Assembly: GCA_964437185.1 (NCBI GenBank)
Contig: CAYTFU010000003.1
Location: forward strand, 26,409 to 90,408
Source of the DNA: an uncultured Candidatus Saccharibacteria bacterium
GTDB taxonomy: Bacteria > Patescibacteriota > Minisyncoccia > Phycocordibacterales > UBA2100
DNA: 64,000 nt
Direction: 5' to 3'
Shown piece by piece: positions 4,320 through 60,084 of the stretch; the stretch's first letter is position 1; every line of letters begins with the position of its first letter. A program made the position numbers and the translations under genes. Below the pieces are notes generated by a model. The model did no database searches. It was not told where the DNA came from and worked only from the letters and a program-made list of their open reading frames with translations.

Positions 4320-4415
4320 CAAGGGTAACCCTTGTGAAAAGGGTTACCCTTGTTTTTGAACCGCGCACGGGGGATGTCGGCAGTAGGGGGAATGGGTAAT
4401 CAAGGGTTACCCTTG
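4320..4415. repeat. REP family 1 cluster: three copies of the 15-nt palindrome CAAGGGTWACCCTTG at the 3' flank of RAYT-1
   Basis: Units at 4320-4334, 4338-4352 and 4401-4415. The last overlaps the RAYT stop codon. Confidence 0.85.
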
Positions 4416-5120
4416 ATTGTTGCGGATGGTGAGCCACTCGTTGAGCTCCCGACCCATGTCGCGCACTGACGTAAATTTCCATGGAAACGGTTCGGGCTTA
4501 ATGATTTTTGACTGAACCCTCCGAAGCGGATGCATGTAATCTTGCAGGCTAGAATACTGATATTCCTCCAAAAACGCCGCACCCTTACGTACATCCACAA
4601 TGCCGTTCTTTTTCCACGTCCCTCCATCGGGCGCTAACTTGATCGGGTTGAGGTGAATGTAGGAAAACAGGTATTGCAGATAACGATCTTCATGTACGTG
4701 CTCCGCCTTAAACGGGCCTTGCATGAGTGACCCCACGCGCTCGTACTTCTTATTGAAATACATCGAATATGCTGTTGTAACCTTCAGCATAAATTTGGAT
4801 ATTCCGACCTCACTGTGCGATTGACGCGCAAGAATGTGAAAGTGGTTTGGCATAAGGCACCACGCCCCAATGTCGATCAATCGATTGTCGATATCGAGTG
4901 ACGCGAGTCGCTCGTATGTAAACCCGCGAATGAGGTATGCGCCTATATTTACGGGGGTCTTGGAGTTGCAAAGATACATGAGCAACACCATTCGCTGATA
5001 ATCCGCCTCGTCTGCGAAGATAGTTCGCTTTTCGACTCCGCGATTGTAAAGGTGGTAGATTTCTCCTTCCGCTAGTGCCAATCCTCGCTCCATATGAGCA
5101 TCATACCACCCCACCAGCAA
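4407..5120 (-). CDS. REP-associated tyrosine transposase (RAYT; IS200/IS605 TnpA Y1 HUH family)
   Basis: YHLYNRG N-motif, HUH motif WCLMPNHFHIL, catalytic Tyr region YIHLNPIK. Immediately flanked on both sides by REP palindromes. Confidence 0.8.
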   Translation of the reverse strand: MLVGWYDAHMERGLALAEGEIYHLYNRGVEKRTIFADEADYQRMVLLMYLCNSKTPVNIGAYLIRGFTYERLASLDIDNRLIDIGAWCLMPNHFHILARQSHSEVGISKFMLKVTTAYSMYFNKKYERVGSLMQGPFKAEHVHEDRYLQYLFSYIHLNPIKLAPDGGTWKKNGIVDVRKGAAFLEEYQYSSLQDYMHPLRRVQSKIIKPEPFPWKFTSVRDMGRELNEWLTIRNNQG

Positions 5121-5224
5121 GGGTAACCCTTTTCACAAGGGTTTCACAAGGGTTACCCTTGATAATTCGTGGCTATTAGACACCCTCTTTCGGGGCTAAT
5201 GGGCTTCAACAAGGGTTACCCTTG
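5118..5224. repeat. REP family 1 cluster at the 5' flank of RAYT-1, including a composite ~45-nt unit
   Basis: CAAGGGTAACCCTT at 5118-5131, a partial unit at 5136-5143, a full unit at 5147-5161, and the composite CGGGGCTAATGGGCTTCAACAAGGGTTACCCTTG at 5191-5224. Confidence 0.85.
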
Positions 5225-5747: not shown

Positions 5748-5888
5748 AAAAGGGTTACCCTTGATAATTTTTAACTATCTGACACCCGCATTCGGGGCTA
5801 ATGGGCTTCAACAAGGGTTACCTTTGTTTTTTGAGGAGGGCTGGGAGCCGGTTCTCGGGGCTAAAGGTCTTCATCAAGGGTTACCCTT
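5748..5888. repeat. REP family 1 cluster (three units, two inside the composite ~45-nt element)
   Basis: AAAGGGTTACCCTTG at 5748-5763, composite CGGGGCTAATGGGCTTCAACAAGGGTTACCTTTG ending at 5828, and GGGGCTAAAGGTCTTCATCAAGGGTTACCCTTG ending at 5888. Confidence 0.85.
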
Positions 5889-5896
5889 GATTGCCT

Positions 5897-10300: not shown

Positions 10301-13232
10301 AATCTTGCGTGCTGTTTGGTATTGCATTCTTGATAATTACGACATGACCACGCTTTGTGTTCGTGAATGTACACGTGACTGTTTCGCCAGCGCCAACATC
10401 AATATCCCCCACCGTTTCGCCCTGATCGCAGGTAGCCGAAGCCTGATCCCATCCGGCCGGAATCGTTTCTGTAACATTGTACTTGCCTGGAATTACAGAC
10501 TGACTGTTTGGTGCTGCAGCATCCGTAAGCGAAAAACTGACGTAACCAGCTCCTCCGGCAGTAAAGCTAAAGCTCTGAGTATCGCCGCTAGGATTGGTTA
10601 CTTTATCGACGATGATTGTGCCGTTTTGAGTATTGGTGAAGGTACAAGTGACGGTCTCCCCAGCTTGTAGTGAAATATTATTCACTGCACTACCGTCACT
10701 ACAGCTCGTATTCGTCAGGTTCCATCCGGCCGGAATGTTGACCTCCGATACTGAATACGTGCCTGGCGCAAGTATGCCGCTGTCACTGGCCGCAGCGGCG
10801 TCCGTAAGGTTGAAGTTGCTAACGCTCCACGAAGGGTCAAATTCAAATGATTGGTTCGAGCCCGAAGGATCAGTCACCTTGTCGATTAGAATCTTACCCT
10901 GCTTCGTATTAGTGAACGTACAGGTCACGTGCTCGCCTGCGCCGACAGTGATGGACTGTATGGTTTCGTCGAGGTCACAAGTTGCAGACGTGAGATCCCA
11001 GCCTGTAGGAACCGATTCTGTGATGTTGTACTCACCAGGTACGAAGTTATTAACGGTCTGACTTGCGGTACCACCTGAAGTGGTGAGCTGTGTAACGCCT
11101 GTGCTTCCAGTAAAGTCGAATGTGCCGTCACCACCAATTGTGTTCTTCACGATAGTGATTGAGCCGCGCCTCGTGTTGGTGAAGGTGCAAGTAATAGTTT
11201 CTCCCGCATCGAGCTCAAGGGTGCCTATAGTTTCAGTGTCTCCTATTGAGCTCACGCACGTGGCGGATGTGAGATCCCATCCCGTTGGAACAGTTTCAGA
11301 GATCGAATAAATGCCAGCATTTAGTGACTGACTGTTCGGTTGCGCAGCGTCCGTAAGAGAGAAGCCATTGTACCCAGTGCCACCCGCAGTAAAGCTGAAG
11401 CTTTGCGCGTCCGCAGCTGGGACGGTTACTTTATCGACAATAATCGTACCTTGCTGGAGAGTATTCGTGAATGTGCAAGTCACCGATTCGCTTGCAGCAA
11501 GATTGATAGTAGCGGTTCGAGTATTGAGGTCAACTGTTGAATTTGTAGTCGGATCAACGCACACAAGGTTTGTGAGGCTATACCCCGCCGCAGATGCCTC
11601 TGACACCGTGTATGCTCCCGGCGCTAACGCTGAGAATACCCGTGTGTTTGGAAGCGACCCATCGCCATCGTCGTCAAGCGAGAAATTCGTTAGGCCTGCG
11701 CCAGTTGTGGTAAAAGCAAAATCCTGTGAATCATTGGGCACAGTATCTTTAATGATTGTGATGGTCGCGTTATTTGGGATAAGAATATCTGCTCCTTTTA
11801 TCTGATTGTCTTGTGAGCCGCCCGTGCCGTCGAACTTAACCGTCTTGATGTGGTATGGGCCACCGCTAATCTGAGACGAACCGAGCCCAGGGCCCCAACT
11901 CACACCCGTCCCATCGCCTGTTACAGCTAGGTGCCCGCCGAAGAATAGCAAAATGTCGCAACCGTCCGCCGCGCTACACCCTGAAGTCGTGAACGGAATT
12001 GTTACGGTAACGACCGAGTCGCCTGTGTCACCATTCGCGGCCACGTCGTGCGCAAGAGTTATCGCACCTGGAGTAATAGTCCCTCCGTCGATGTAAATCG
12101 AGATATTACGAGGAGCTCCAAAATCCGCCATATAGGCATTCTCCTTGTTAGTCTGAGCTGCTGAGGAGCCATCCTTACTATCGAACGGATCGTTTGGAAT
12201 AGGTACAAGATGGTCAGGGGCGCTTCCTGAGGGATTTAGGTTCGTACATGCAGCTGCGTCTGCCCCCGCAAGATCCGAACAAGCGTTCAAAGTTGGAGTT
12301 CCAGGCGCAAACGATCCATTACCCTGTGCGCCCCCAGTGTTTGGATTCACAGTCGTCAAAAAGTCGTACGCGTGAATGCCGGCCTTCGTGTACTGATACG
12401 TGAACGTAATGCTGTGGGCCCCGTCCACAACTTTCGCGTCACGAAAGAGCAGCCTTTGAGGAACGGTCATTCCCTCGTAATAAATTGAGTTTGATTGCTG
12501 GACAATCGAGCCGATCCAATTGCACTCTCCCGCCGTAGGATTATTGTTCGAGCATTGGGTAAAGCTCGTTTGCAGTGGGTCTATAACACTGGTTGTGGCC
12601 AATACTGCACCATCCCCGTCCTCAGCAGAAATAGTATAAAGAGGAGTAAAAAGATCGGACAAAACGTAGTTATACGTAAACACACCTGTCTCATCAGTCA
12701 CGATGTTAAATACTTCCGTGGAATAAATTTCTGAAGGGTTGAGAAGTGATCCACCTACAATTCTCAGAACAATATTCTGTATTGCAGTAAAAAACCTTCC
12801 AAAAATAGAGACGGTTTCCTCAGGATTATATTCGGCCTTTTCTGTCGAGAGCTCGGGTGAAGGGGTCGAGGCTGCTACGGCAGCGCTTTGATCGGTAGAA
12901 TCGTTGGAGGATGATTCCGTGGTAGTCGTGGTAGAAGTGTCTTCTGGTGCGTCAACAGGAGCGTCTGTCTGCTCGGAGGTTGTCGAATCCGTACTCCCTT
13001 CACTCGCCGTAGAATCTTCCGCAACGGTATCTGCAGGTGCGTCTGCTGTCGCATCACTACTAGCGGTCGTCTCTGTAGAAGTGTCCGCAGGAGATTCGGT
13101 CGCGGCTACCGTAGTGTCCGTTAGCTCCTCGGCATACGAAACGGAATGTAAAAAAAGCATCATAAAACCCATCGATGAAAAAAGCATCAACGCTGCGATG
13201 GTCTTGCGCACATTTATTGTTGAGAGAGTCAT
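7341..13232 (-). CDS. Giant secreted surface protein (1963 aa) with an acidic S/T-rich linker and 14 tandem ~95-aa prealbumin/SpaA-like repeats, each with a conserved Cys pair
   Basis: Signal peptide MTLSTINVRKTIAALMLFSSMGF...; 14 repeats ending in the motif [VIM]TC[TV][FIL]TN across about 7650-11600; no internal stops. Confidence 0.75.
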   Translation of the reverse strand: MTLSTINVRKTIAALMLFSSMGFMMLFLHSVSYAEELTDTTVAATESPADTSTETTASSDATADAPADTVAEDSTASEGSTDSTTSEQTDAPVDAPEDTSTTTTTESSSNDSTDQSAAVAASTPSPELSTEKAEYNPEETVSIFGRFFTAIQNIVLRIVGGSLLNPSEIYSTEVFNIVTDETGVFTYNYVLSDLFTPLYTISAEDGDGAVLATTSVIDPLQTSFTQCSNNNPTAGECNWIGSIVQQSNSIYYEGMTVPQRLLFRDAKVVDGAHSITFTYQYTKAGIHAYDFLTTVNPNTGGAQGNGSFAPGTPTLNACSDLAGADAAACTNLNPSGSAPDHLVPIPNDPFDSKDGSSAAQTNKENAYMADFGAPRNISIYIDGGTITPGAITLAHDVAANGDTGDSVVTVTIPFTTSGCSAADGCDILLFFGGHLAVTGDGTGVSWGPGLGSSQISGGPYHIKTVKFDGTGGSQDNQIKGADILIPNNATITIIKDTVPNDSQDFAFTTTGAGLTNFSLDDDGDGSLPNTRVFSALAPGAYTVSEASAAGYSLTNLVCVDPTTNSTVDLNTRTATINLAASESVTCTFTNTLQQGTIIVDKVTVPAADAQSFSFTAGGTGYNGFSLTDAAQPNSQSLNAGIYSISETVPTGWDLTSATCVSSIGDTETIGTLELDAGETITCTFTNTRRGSITIVKNTIGGDGTFDFTGSTGVTQLTTSGGTASQTVNNFVPGEYNITESVPTGWDLTSATCDLDETIQSITVGAGEHVTCTFTNTKQGKILIDKVTDPSGSNQSFEFDPSWSVSNFNLTDAAAASDSGILAPGTYSVSEVNIPAGWNLTNTSCSDGSAVNNISLQAGETVTCTFTNTQNGTIIVDKVTNPSGDTQSFSFTAGGAGYVSFSLTDAAAPNSQSVIPGKYNVTETIPAGWDQASATCDQGETVGDIDVGAGETVTCTFTNTKRGHVVIIKNAIPNSTQDFSFTGSGSIGAFLLDDDGDIGNALPKQRDFEVVPGSYTVSEAAIAGWQQESATCDKGEAINSIDVEPGETVTCTFTNEKLAKITLVKNTIGGNGTFDFVMTGAGLPSSAQLTTVANTASQVFSDLDPDNTYTMAETPVPAGWDLLSATCSNGDPVNQITPNAGEEITCTFTNEADAFIIVDKVTDPAGDLTEFGFTTDYGLPFVLADGSTANNSGDLAPGVYDVTEAAEAGWDNTSISCASSLGDPVDTDGQDLDLDAGETITCTFTNQKDANIIVEKQTIPDGDLAVFDFDLSYGSGDADISDGQQDDSGDLNPGTYSVAETELAGWDLTSTVCTSSIEGIESAATIDLTAGETVTCVFTNTKHGSITIEKQTIGGDADFTFTGDVSGILNDNDTATQEVIPGTYDSTETVTSGWDLTDITCDDSNSSGNIGTGVATFNVAAGENVTCTFTNTKDSKIIVNKVTVGGDGNFDFAASYDQDGFVLANGGSNDSGDIDAGTYSVSETVPAGWDLTSATCDDASDPSSINLAAGETVTCTFTNTKLPTLTLEKEVVIDNGGTAVDTDWTIEATDNDQTTISGEEGDLSITSAIVPIGSYDLSESGGPLGYAASDWVCVGVTQDDGDTVTLGAGDNVTCTITNDDIAPVLHLNKVVVNNSGGTALESAWTLTATGPTSITGPGAAGSPDVSSGASFDAGSYVLSESAGPTGYAASSWSCTNGDNDGTVSIGLGETVTCTITNDDQQAYITVVKVVDNGNGGIANPNDFNLTLEGSPVSSGVAVPVNPGTYTAGETQLPGYIFEGFSGDCDVNGDTTVALGENMTCTLTNNDTPGHFTGGGSVFPNTLETGVVLSGVTGRSAKETRVTHGFTLHCDVSRGPNRLEVNWGINGKKAQKFHLLTLNSAQCTDDPEIDPRMPNAEFDTITGVGTGRFNGVEDATIQFMFNDAGEPGGEDQAYMIIRDKDDKVVLNTVGPLFINMGNQQAHQDN

Positions 13233-13948: not shown

Positions 13949-14093
13949 ATGGTGAGCGTAGGGTTCCAGTATAGCCTACTTGTGGACATTCACTTGATTT
14001 CGCCTTGAGCTAGGGCATAGTTGGGATACAACGGCTTCGGCCTCGAGGCGGCGGAAACGCCACCTCTTATATTTTGCACTTCAACAAGGGTAA

Positions 14094-14140
14094 CCCTTAC
14101 AGAAACCCTTGCGGAAAGGGTTACTCTTGCCTAAGCTTTT
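14094..14140. repeat. REP family 1 doublet
   Basis: CAAGGGTAACCCTT at 14094-14107 and AAAGGGTTACTCTTG at 14126-14140. Confidence 0.8.
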
Positions 14141-15420: not shown

Positions 15421-15453
15421 CAAGGGTAACCCTTTCAGAAAGGGTTACCCTTG
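15421..15453. repeat. REP family 1 doublet
   Basis: CAAGGGTAACCCTT at 15421-15434 and AAAGGGTTACCCTTG at 15439-15453. Confidence 0.85.
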
Positions 15454-22152: not shown

Positions 22153-22179
22153 TCATGTGGGGTTTCGTAAATCCCACGT
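22153..22179. repeat. REP family 2 palindrome (3' flank of RAYT-2)
   Basis: CATGTGGGGTTTCGTAAATCCCACGTA. Confidence 0.75.
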
Positions 22180-22206: not shown

Positions 22207-22860
22207 TTACTCGAGCAGGGCGATTTCCATTTTCCAAGAAATATCTTTTATGAAGCGCTGTGTTTTTGATACGACACCACCGTATGCCTCCTCGAATAAT
22301 TCTCTGTTCAGAATCGACGGGAAATTTACCTGTCCCGAATAGTCAGGAAAACTGCTCCAGCGATATGTCCGTAGAAATGCCATGGCCTTTCTTTCACTTG
22401 CGATTCCGCCCTCGCGCCAGCCTTTAGCCCCTTCGAGAAAGTCGAGGGGATTGAGATGAATGTAATGCAGGATGTGCAAAAAATGCGCTTCGCGCTCGAT
22501 CAGTACCTTCTTGGTGCGTCCCTGAAACAGCGCTCCCTCGCGTTCATGAAGTTCGTTGTAATAGTTGGCATACCCAACATTGAGCTTGCGAATAAATTTT
22601 GTTAGTCCTCCGTCCTCTATTTCGGATACGAGTAAATGGTAATGATTTTTCATAAGACACCACCCGTGTAAATCAATCAGCCGCTTTCGCTTCGCCAACG
22701 TGGGGTTTCGTAAATCCCACGTCTTTCGTCTATATGCGTCTGGCGCAGGCCGAATATCATTGAATTCGTATATGTCTCGCACAAAGCGAGCGCAGTGCGC
22801 ATCGTCATCAAAAATTGTTCGCTTATCTACACCCCTATTGAGTACATGATACAGCTCCAC
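22207..22860 (-). CDS. REP-associated tyrosine transposase (RAYT-2; IS200/IS605 TnpA Y1 family) carrying an internal REP-2 copy
   Basis: YHVLNRG, HUH motif WCLMKNHYHLL, YIHLNPLDF; internal palindrome at 22698-22724 encodes ...TWDLRNPTLA... in frame. Confidence 0.75.
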   Translation of the reverse strand: MELYHVLNRGVDKRTIFDDDAHCARFVRDIYEFNDIRPAPDAYRRKTWDLRNPTLAKRKRLIDLHGWCLMKNHYHLLVSEIEDGGLTKFIRKLNVGYANYYNELHEREGALFQGRTKKVLIEREAHFLHILHYIHLNPLDFLEGAKGWREGGIASERKAMAFLRTYRWSSFPDYSGQVNFPSILNRELFEEAYGGVVSKTQRFIKDISWKMEIALLE

Positions 22861-22876
22861 TCCAATAGTGTACTTT

Positions 22877-22907
22877 CAACGTGGGATTTACGAAATCCCA
22901 CGTGGGG
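22877..22907. repeat. REP family 2 perfect hairpin (5' flank of RAYT-2)
   Basis: CAACGTGGGATTTACGAAATCCCACGTGGGG. Confidence 0.8.
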
Positions 22908-30831: not shown

Positions 30832-30856
30832 TTCAAGTGAGATTTTTTTATTTCTA

Positions 30857-30889
30857 CAAGGGTAACCCTTGAGAAAAGGGTTACCCTTG
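30857..30889. repeat. REP family 1 doublet
   Basis: CAAGGGTAACCCTTG at 30857-30871 and AAAGGGTTACCCTTG at 30875-30889. Confidence 0.85.
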
Positions 30890-30906
30890 TATTGACACAA
30901 GAGATT

Positions 30907-35578: not shown

Positions 35579-35593
35579 CAAGGGTTACCCTTG
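35579..35593. repeat. REP family 1 unit
   Basis: CAAGGGTTACCCTTG between ftsB-like and lepA. Confidence 0.8.
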
Positions 35594-39255: not shown

Positions 39256-39762
39256 GTGTGTTTCTGCGTAATGAGCCGGATTCTGTGCCGATTCTGTCCA
39301 CCGCAGGTGGTTACAGAATCGAGCATCCTGCGAAGCCTTGGCGAAGCAGGATAGTACCATAGTACTTCTCCGCTAAAGCTACGAAGCATACTCGATTTTG
39401 CAACTGCCTGCGGCAGGCAAAATCGGTAGCAACCATGTATCTAGCCCCGAGATTGCTCGCGGGGTCGAGCGACTCTCCCGTGAGATATCCAATTGGTGTA
39501 TCCCATGGGCACGGTCTTGCACGCGGGTAGGATTTTTGCCGTTGCACCCCCAACGTCTCCATTGGGGCTAATGCGATGAGATGACATCTCATCGCATCCC
39601 CTTGCTTCTCAGCTTGGGCGTCTCTGTTCGCATCCCTAGGATTACCCCGGCGGGCGTTACCCGCTACCGTCCTCCACCTTCCTTTCGAAACGTGGGCGTG
39701 TCCGGACTTTCCTAACCATCTCTCCGAAGATCGATGGCTCAGCTGCCTAACGCAGAGAACCA
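39256..39762 (-). ncRNA. rnpB: RNase P RNA (bacterial type A-like) with an inserted palindromic hairpin
   Basis: On the minus strand: P4 5' strand GGTTAGGAAAGTCCGGACACG, P4 3' strand CACAGAATCCGGCTCATTACGCAG, P1 pairing GTTCTCTGCGTTA / TTACGCAGAAAC, internal GGGTAACGCCCGCCGGGG. Ends are approximate. Confidence 0.7.
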
Positions 39763-59219: not shown

Positions 59220-59259
59220 GGCGGGGTTCTATCGTTGAACCCCGCCGCAACGCTTTTTA
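59220..59259 (+). terminator. Rho-independent terminator closing a ~260-nt non-coding region downstream of rnj
   Basis: GGCGGGGTTC-TATCGT-TGAACCCCGCC then GCAACGCTTTTTA. Confidence 0.6.
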
Positions 59260-60084
59260 TGCAATCTTCCACTTCCCTTTTTTCTTCACAACCAACCCAT
59301 CCCGCTCCAACCCTTCGATCGCCGATTTGAATCTGCTGTCCGTCGCGATGAGATGACATCTCATCGCACTTTCGGCCTGAGGACCAAAGTGTAACGCGCG
59401 CAAGATTGCGCCGCGGACTTGGCGGAGAGAGCCTTCAAACTTAGATTGCTTTACATGGTGCGCGCTTTTGCGGGCTGGATTTTTGTAAAGTTTTTTGATA
59501 TACACTCCATAATCCATCAGTGCCCAATGCCATTCTCTTGATCCGCCAATGGACGGATGCCCCCTAGATGCCTTTTCCGCATATCTTATTATTCTACGGT
59601 CGTATACTAATAAGATACGGGAAAAGAAGTGGTGGATGAAGGCGGCGCGTATGTTTGTTTCGATAAGGACGTCAAATTCGTTGAATGCAAACACTCGAAC
59701 AGCACCTGCGGTGTAATCCCCGATTCCGGGTAGTGCCTTGAGGTGCGCTTTATCCTTGGGCACTATGCCGTTGTATTTTTCTACAATTACTTTCGCGGCA
59801 TCATGCAGATACTTGCCCCTCCTGTTGTATCCGAGCCCACTCCAGATTTTTAGTACGTCGGCCAATTTTGCGCGGGCCAACTTTCTTACCGTCGGAAACA
59901 CCTTCAAAAACTTCTCATACTTCTCCTGCACCCTCGACACTTGCGTCTGTTGCAACATCACCTCCGACACAAGAATTCGATACGGATCCTTAGTCTTTCG
60001 CCACGGCAAATCATGCCGCCCGTTTTTTCTCCAATACTTCCAGACCGTTGTTCTGAATGCGCGCATACGCGCATTAGAGTTCAT
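59257..60084 (-). CDS. MutY-like HhH-GPD DNA glycosylase lacking the [4Fe-4S] cysteine cluster
   Basis: PYRILVSEVMLQQT..., HhH LPGIGDYTAGAV, ...WALMDYG with no following Cys ligands; 24-nt palindrome inside the C-terminal region. Confidence 0.7.
   Translation of the reverse strand: MNSNARMRAFRTTVWKYWRKNGRHDLPWRKTKDPYRILVSEVMLQQTQVSRVQEKYEKFLKVFPTVRKLARAKLADVLKIWSGLGYNRRGKYLHDAAKVIVEKYNGIVPKDKAHLKALPGIGDYTAGAVRVFAFNEFDVLIETNIRAAFIHHFFSRILLVYDRRIIRYAEKASRGHPSIGGSREWHWALMDYGVYIKKLYKNPARKSAHHVKQSKFEGSLRQVRGAILRALHFGPQAESAMRCHLIATDSRFKSAIEGLERDGLVVKKKGKWKIA

Follow-up and report, generated by a model that had tools for sequence, protein, structure and literature searches.

A candidate REP-like hairpin repeat shared by the RNase P RNA and a MutY-like gene of a CPR bacterium, and its association with a RAYT-type transposase

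The 64,000-nt stretch of bacterial DNA analysed here (the window) carries one 24-nt palindrome, GCGATGAGATGACATCTCATCGCA, at two positions of the forward strand, 39573-39596 within the RNase P RNA gene (rnpB) and 59345-59368 within the coding sequence of a MutY-like DNA glycosylase. This raises the question of how an RNA gene and a protein gene came to hold an identical sequence. The initial annotation reported both copies and thought their coincidence unlikely by chance; a scan of the window bears out both statements, with 0.00 occurrences expected in 100 dinucleotide-preserving shuffles, and finds no third match in the window when up to three mismatches are allowed. Here we argue that the 24-mer is very probably a dispersed REP-like hairpin repeat of a RAYT-type HUH/Y1 transposase, located in the Kaiserbacteria-like genome of an ultra-small, uncultured bacterium of the candidate phyla radiation (CPR).

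The palindrome in its RNA and protein contexts

Identity between the two window copies ends at 24 nt because their flanks differ. Self-complementarity extends over 27 nt with 13-bp arms in rnpB (39571-39597, minus strand), where the RNA strand reads ATGCGATGAGATG-T-CATCTCATCGCAT, and over 23 nt with 11-bp arms in the MutY-like gene. Since both genes lie on the minus strand, a point on which the initial annotation is amended, the centre base is U in both transcripts, and RNA hairpins are predicted for the rnpB copy (-21.5 kcal/mol, z -4.9) and the MutY-like copy (-17.2 kcal/mol), with z-scores of about -4.3 to -4.9 for the window copies. Direct reading of the palindrome gives three open frames out of six, encoding AMRCHLIA, DEMSSHR, and DEMTSHR. 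The AMRCHLIA frame requires T as the centre base on the coding strand; the centre codon in the MutY-like frame is TGT (Cys), and the same frame of the opposite strand reads TGA (stop).

The rnpB gene (bacterial type A RNase P RNA, minus strand) was placed at 39420-39747 by alignment to RF00010 (69.7 bits, E 7e-21), a span that represents the Rfam-aligned part, the true ends lying slightly beyond. At the Rfam gathering threshold four tRNAs alone are reported in the window; the RNase P RNA was found by a permissive scan and, given that its 69.7 bits fall below the gathering score of 100, is missed by a default Rfam scan. The rnpB of L013 (9442-9921) is likewise under this threshold (85.8 bits vs 100), and standard annotation would overlook the RNase P RNA of this lineage. 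Matches of the hairpin to microRNA and snoRNA families in Rfam (E 0.07-6) were set aside as chance hairpin matches.

In L013, L014, and L016, syntenic rnpB orthologues retrieved via MurJ homologues have the RNR gene on one side and the MurJ gene on the other, and their comparison reveals hypervariability of P12-P14, both in length and in sequence. In RF00010 the counterpart of the window copy is the hairpin of model positions ~161-179, which we take to be P13 in E. coli numbering. P13 is a 14-16-nt hairpin in the three relatives, unrelated in sequence to the palindrome (AUUCC-UUC-GGGAAU in L014, CAUCC-UGCAA-GGAUG in L013), and a 27-nt palindrome in the window; the repeat is missing from the rnpB of relatives whose MurJ is 72-81% identical. 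As the palindrome occupies the P13 position, where relatives have other hairpins, it constitutes or extends P13. The initial annotation, which described an extra hairpin between conserved segments, is therefore corrected on this point, for the copy takes the place of a native helix; the possibility it raised, that the hairpin is lineage-specific, is confirmed by the different P13 sequences of the three relatives. Contig L067, a separate assembly, matches the rnpB region with 100% identity.

The second copy (59345-59368, minus strand, located by the 24-mer match) lies in frame in a 275-aa HhH-GPD DNA glycosylase (59257-60084, minus strand; Pfam PF00730, 56 bits), homologues of which are named 'A/G-specific adenine glycosylase' by JGI, and encodes A240-MRCHLI-A247. 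An alignment of 28 homologues places the repeat in a variable-length segment that follows RGAILRxL in the C-terminal domain, and short homologues lack ~8 residues there, a lineage-specific pattern in the comparison that the initial annotation had called for. In an AlphaFold (AF2) model of the protein (mean pLDDT 86), residues 240-247 are predicted to form a short helix and loop within a C-terminal domain of three helices plus a beta-hairpin, and the 10-residue block over the repeat has a pLDDT of 76 vs 90-94 in the adjoining blocks.

A palindrome family and its transposase genes

A genome scan (one genome per species, query CGATGAGATGNCATCTCATCG) returned eight loci, in MAGs labelled Kaiserbacteria and Saccharibacteria and in one Vibrio, and a metagenome scan with covarying positions left free returned 47, mostly from groundwater. 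Together these loci represent ~39 distinct copies in public data (9 flanking RAYT genes, 15 in frame in ORFs of 150 aa or more, the one in rnpB, and 14 intergenic or on short contigs), and the same repeat recurs in many assemblies from different projects. The consensus, (AAAT)[G/C]CGATGAG[A/G]TG-N-CA[T/C]CTCATCG[C/G](ATTT), is fully symmetric, and wherever copies differ, a change in one arm has its mirror image in the other, out to 18 bp. Solitary copies are clean palindromes of 21-35 nt, whose arms of 10-18 bp enclose one centre base, and hold no transposase remnants. Nearly all copies are singlets, adjacent pairs of different subfamilies occurring only in L004, L006, and L074. Neither a target-site duplication nor a conserved flanking motif was found among 45 aligned copies, the centre base has no fixed orientation relative to RAYT or host genes, and neither window copy has duplicated flanks. 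The Vibrio match (L008) fits the roughly 0.5 chance matches that we estimate for 596 Gb; three matches from a scan of viral contigs were treated as chance, their variable positions not being complementary, and that scan yielded no evidence of a phage origin.

At three loci, paired copies ~720-730 nt apart enclose an ORF of ~225 aa. This ORF matches Pfam PF01797 (Y1_Tnp, IS200-like transposase) at 31-36 bits against a cut-off of 23, and its best and only NCBIfam match is NF047646 (REP-associated tyrosine transposase, RAYT), at 39-43 bits against a curated cut-off of 80. An invariant HUH motif (H82-x-H84) and Y142-I-H-x-N-P are evident in the alignment, and some homologues carry the JGI name RayT; a profile match to E. 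coli TnpA-REP (4er8) was non-significant (E 0.64), and a PDB single-sequence search with the RAYT gave no match.

Members of the palindrome family are found 1-25 nt from the ends of the RAYT gene in every locus that holds it, six or more of the Kaiserbacteria type. They occur at both ends in L072/L073, L007/L025, L021, L035, and L074, and at the one end present in the contig in L029, L040, and L043. In L007/L025, ACGATGAGATGACATCTCATCGT lies 14 nt before the RAYT start and CACGATGAGATAACATCTCATCGTG 1 nt past the stop, and in L021 and L035 the gene is bracketed by CCGATGAGGTG-type copies; every combination of centre bases is seen around RAYT genes. L074 (593-656 and 13648-13674) comes from the MAG of L006, and its RAYT has a third subfamily, TGCAGTGAGGTGGGACCTCACTGCA, on its flanks. 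The gene order thyA-dcd-RAYT-folA is found in L007, L021, L035, and L072, with a similar neighbourhood in L074, and this arrangement is kept among relatives whose RAYTs are 60-70% identical. Such a conserved locus is consistent with vertical inheritance, and no locus examined holds a second RAYT copy of this clade (that of P0330).

The RAYT of the window's own organism, P0330, is 60% identical to that of L007 and is encoded at L072 10001-10678. Its flanking palindromes, AATGCGATGAGATGTCATCTCATCGCATT and AAATGCGATGAGATGTCATCTCATCGCATTT, are 29-31 nt long and contain the window repeat exactly, their core being identical to the rnpB copy. The P0330 contig L073 and the contig L067, which is 100% identical to the window, come from one sample (ERZ27247837), and L072 does not overlap the window, which places the cognate transposase gene outside it. 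The genomic association between palindrome and RAYT gene is thus observed both in this organism and in its relatives, and it lends support to the proposal in the initial annotation of a miniature mobile hairpin element.

A tblastn search of the window uncovered two more RAYT-like genes, each with palindromes of its own. One (237 aa, 4407-5120, minus strand, 45% identical to P0330) has AAGGGT[A/T]ACCCTT palindromes at its flanks, often in doublets; this family is found at 4320-4352, 4398-4418, 5119-5160, 5211-5223, 5750-5762, 5873-5891, 14086-14098, 15421-15453, 30855-30891, and 35580-35592, and is the most abundant palindrome family of the window, apparently mostly intergenic. The other gene (217 aa, 22207-22860, minus strand, 32% identical) is associated with GTGGG[A/G]TTT-N3-AAATCCCAC palindromes, which flank it at 22157-22177 and 22879-22903; a further copy, at 22700-22720, lies in frame within the RAYT gene itself, where it encodes TWDLRNPT. 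A single organism therefore has three RAYT paralogues, of three clades, and three palindrome families paired one to one, which is the REPtron pattern (PMC6006769); the notion that the 24-mer represents a distinct third palindrome family gains support from the same pairing. Palindromes centred on ACG, like that at 22879-22903, also occur in L001 (5289-5313 and 7823-7847), L072 (5757-5787), and L075 (10624-10644), examples being GGAGAT-ACG-ATCTCC and CGATTT-ACG-AAATCG, and may belong to one broader family.

Host ORFs confirmed by Pfam encode UvrB, LysRS, PurD, TsaD (two genomes), ATP synthase gamma (AtpG), and MiaA. Within coding sequences the copies are found in both orientations (DEVSPHR vs DEVTPHR), in both open frame types, and in different frames. 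The TsaD of a Saccharibacteria-labelled MAG is 58% identical to that of a Kaiserbacteria-type contig, from which the genomes bearing these two labels may be closer kin than the labels imply. Several neighbouring observations are recorded here: a 584-aa membrane protein (L006 4355-6109, minus strand) contains the repeat in frame three times, twice as AMRCHLIA and once as AMRRRLIA; a member of the family in Kaiserbacteria GWA2_52_12 (L005 2688-2708; also L051, L052, and L058) lies ~280 nt from the tmRNA gene (2017-2407); and in L016 a pair of ATAGGGCGATATATCGCCCTAT sequences (1526-1549 and 1978-1999) brackets a gene with a Pfam match to the Trp_repressor family, not a transposase, and may be an operator pair or another type of repeat.

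Relation to known repeats and alternative explanations

The arrangement shares much with the REP/RAYT systems described in the REPtron literature (PMC3116915, PMC5581495, PMC6006769, PMC3479197): an apparently single-copy HUH/Y1 gene is bracketed by short palindromes that are also scattered alone, every transposase paralogue is paired with a palindrome family of its own, and synteny is conserved. In canonical REPs the hairpin is imperfect and bears a GT[AG]G guide tetranucleotide at its 5' foot (PMC6006769), whereas this tetranucleotide is absent from the present family. REPs are imperfect, oriented hairpins; the palindromes seen here are perfect, and with a single central base they have no built-in orientation. 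Further differences from REP/RAYT systems are the prevalence of singlets over REPIN doublets, the large intragenic share, the CPR host, and a transposase that scores below the NCBIfam RAYT cut-off. Copy number is apparently low (two copies in 64 kb vs hundreds per genome for classical REPs), and in place of the extragenic, high-copy doublets typical of REPs, both window copies are intragenic and 15 of the 39 copies are in long ORFs. The missing GT[AG]G, the perfect palindromes, the mirrored changes, the mixed centres, and the low copy number together make this family a variant rather than a canonical REP member.

Intragenic placement has precedents, in that in-frame REPs are known, many of them in DNA-repair and tRNA synthetase genes (Di Nocera et al. 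2013, PMC3733652), as are REPs inside tnpA-REP genes (subclass 2.4; the REPtron arrangement is described in the same work, PMC6006769). The window palindrome at 22700-22720, in frame within its own RAYT-like gene, is a case like those of subclass 2.4. The copies described here are similarly translated within apparently functional repair and tRNA-related enzymes (UvrB, MutY-like, LysRS, TsaD, and MiaA), whereas published intragenic REPs are GTAG- or CGTC-tagged, come from Proteobacteria, Opitutus, and similar organisms, and are a minority of large extragenic families. In the literature we found no published REP in an RNase P RNA gene and no REP/RAYT or in-frame palindrome system in CPR bacteria. 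The main ingredients all have precedents, then, and the CPR host and the RNase P RNA location are the two for which no description was found.

Other repeat classes share single features with the family. Location in frame within protein genes recalls the Rickettsia palindromic elements (RPEs). RPEs, roughly 100-150 bp long, occur in Rickettsia alone and are not known to have an associated transposase, whereas the repeats analysed here have 21-35 nt and a CPR host and do not belong to that class. One RPE sits in a structural RNA gene, the tmRNA of R. bellii (PMC1458961). TIRYT/TIR repeats, some of which are self-complementary, form small dispersed families (PMC3733652), and in both respects the present family resembles them. 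IS200/IS605 elements use Y1 HUH chemistry and have subterminal hairpins that are recognised on single-stranded DNA, features that the family presumably shares, and like them it has a gene-plus-hairpins unit of ~0.7 kb; unlike in those elements, the gene is apparently not multiplying and hairpins alone are dispersed. MITEs are 70-300 bp long, with terminal inverted repeats and a target-site duplication; the element is too short for one, and the window copies lack duplicated flanks. HIP1 (GCGATCGC), DNA uptake sequence, parS, NrdR, and CIRCE-type elements were rejected on sequence, copy number, or context.

Transposase pairing, mirrored changes, both orientations, the conserved locus, and recurrence across assemblies weigh against the explanations that compete with a RAYT-associated repeat. 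The palindrome could be a non-mobile site conserved for binding by a host protein, either a regulator of thyA-dcd-folA or a chromosome organiser. The perfect dyad symmetry, the conserved ATGAG-N7-CTCAT core, the low copy number, and the two copies around a gene of a nucleotide-metabolism cluster would all suit such a site, and chromosome-organisation sites such as parS can be intragenic. We nevertheless regard it as very unlikely, as the gene between the two copies encodes a Y1 transposase, copies lie within unrelated housekeeping genes and an RNA helix, and changes are mirrored to 18 bp, which binding by a dimer would not demand; moreover, three paralogous transposases with three different palindromes point to enzyme-substrate pairs rather than a regulon. 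The shared protein-binding site offered by the initial annotation is retained in one sense, that the hairpins are, by analogy, presumed transposase substrates, and given up in any other. A functional RNA module, selected in the RNase P RNA and the MutY-like mRNA for one post-transcriptional role that they share, such as recognition by RNase III or an RNA-binding protein, is a highly improbable reading as well. Both window transcripts contain the hairpin in the same orientation, with a central U and a stable fold, compensatory changes keep the stem between orthologues, and REPs are known to affect mRNA stability (PMC3733652); on the other hand, copies in coding sequences occur in both orientations and in different frames, RAYT-flanking copies have all centre-base combinations, and the rnpB and MutY-like genes of close relatives are unrelated at these positions.

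At ~730 bp, and with a hairpin on either side of a Y1 transposase gene, the unit is much like IS200, and one might take it for an ordinary IS200/IS605 element whose dead copies have left eroded ends as solitary hairpins. This is exceedingly improbable in our judgement: the unit keeps one position, thyA-dcd-X-folA, though the RAYTs differ by 30-40%, no locus seen has a second copy of the clade, the solitary copies are clean stretches of 21-35 nt free of transposase remnants, and the 225-aa protein finds its best match in the RAYT model. The last alternative ascribes the shared 24-mer to chance, to an assembly artefact, or to two palindromes that arose independently in situ. All that speaks for it is that a palindrome holds half the information that its length suggests; with 0.00 occurrences expected, the 100% identity of L067, and recurrence across assemblies and projects, we consider its probability negligible.

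Proposed mechanism, recurrent sites, and implications

The mechanism that we propose for the RAYT-associated repeat follows the biochemistry of E. coli TnpA-REP and IS608 (PMC3479197, PMC6006769). By analogy with these enzymes, the transposase would bind the folded hairpin on single-stranded DNA, cleave next to it, and join it into other single-stranded sites, and hairpin copies could thereby spread without the gene. In a gene-dense genome only harmless copies would survive. Copies in proteins would need a tolerant segment and one of three stop-free frame types (AMRCHLIA, DE[V/M]SPHR, or DE[V/M]TSHR/TPHR), and copies in structured RNAs would be tolerated where the hairpin merely lengthens a peripheral helix. 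The rnpB copy would accordingly replace or extend the apical part of P13, and the MutY-like copy would supply ~8 residues of a hypervariable stretch in a C-terminal winged-helix-like domain. In the loci compared, no mobility event was seen and no target-site signature was found.

Sites orthologous to one another in the MutY-like, TsaD, and MiaA genes are occupied by palindromes in several lineages. The MutY-like site has a different palindrome in each of five lineages, from at least three unrelated families: a GCGATGAGATG-type copy in the window, CAAATCCGATGAGGTGTCACCTCATCGGATTTG in L009 (6916-6948), TATCGGCCTATTCGCGCGAATAGGCCGATA in L010 (10838-10867), a degenerate relative of the latter in L012 (about 10730-10760), and TAACGACCTACGAGGTCGTTA in the closest relative, L075 (10624-10644). 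The stem is preserved between these orthologues by compensatory changes. Further palindromes are present within the MutY-like orthologues of L010 (10582-10606), L009 (6679-6699), and L075 (10239-10266), those of L010 and L009 at a second length-variable site, after HHFF. The palindrome family is found at one loop of TsaD in three genomes and in both orientations (L001 7584-7606, L003 4347-4369, and L047 about 4778-4796). In MiaA the copies (L002 7928-7948, L034 72-92, and L038 2816-2836) cover the HxLLD motif, presumably with no change in length relative to E. coli MiaA, and orientation and subfamily vary among the TsaD and MiaA genomes.

Random transposition with purifying selection does not obviously predict such reuse of orthologous sites, and their repeated occupation, as read from the sequences, suggests hairpin-targeted insertion or in situ replacement. 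We put forward, as a tentative idea that we think rather unlikely to hold, that hairpin repeats of CPR bacteria are not spread randomly but rewritten into the same hairpin-tolerant positions of essential genes. Rewriting of this kind would fit a RAYT that aims at the apex of existing hairpins; it would equally fit one that replaces or homogenises resident hairpins, which are then symmetrised by hairpin-templated copying. If true, it would be a mode of action for which REP/RAYT systems have no description, and it could make the repeat a working part of RNase P RNA, in P13.

Identification of the palindrome as a probable RAYT-associated repeat would explain how an RNA gene and a protein gene came to share an identical 24-mer, otherwise a puzzle, and would extend REP/RAYT-type systems to CPR bacteria, whose tiny, gene-dense genomes leave repeats few non-genic places to go. 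The family would then offer a natural example of a mobile hairpin that serves as a ribozyme helix and as a peptide in proteins of DNA repair, tRNA modification, and ATP synthase, and its orientation-less, GTAG-free substrate could help in the study of how RAYTs recognise and move hairpins. For annotation, such repeats may depress covariance-model scores, as with the rnpB that falls under the Rfam threshold, and the lineage-specific peptides that they encode can confuse both gene annotation and protein alignment.
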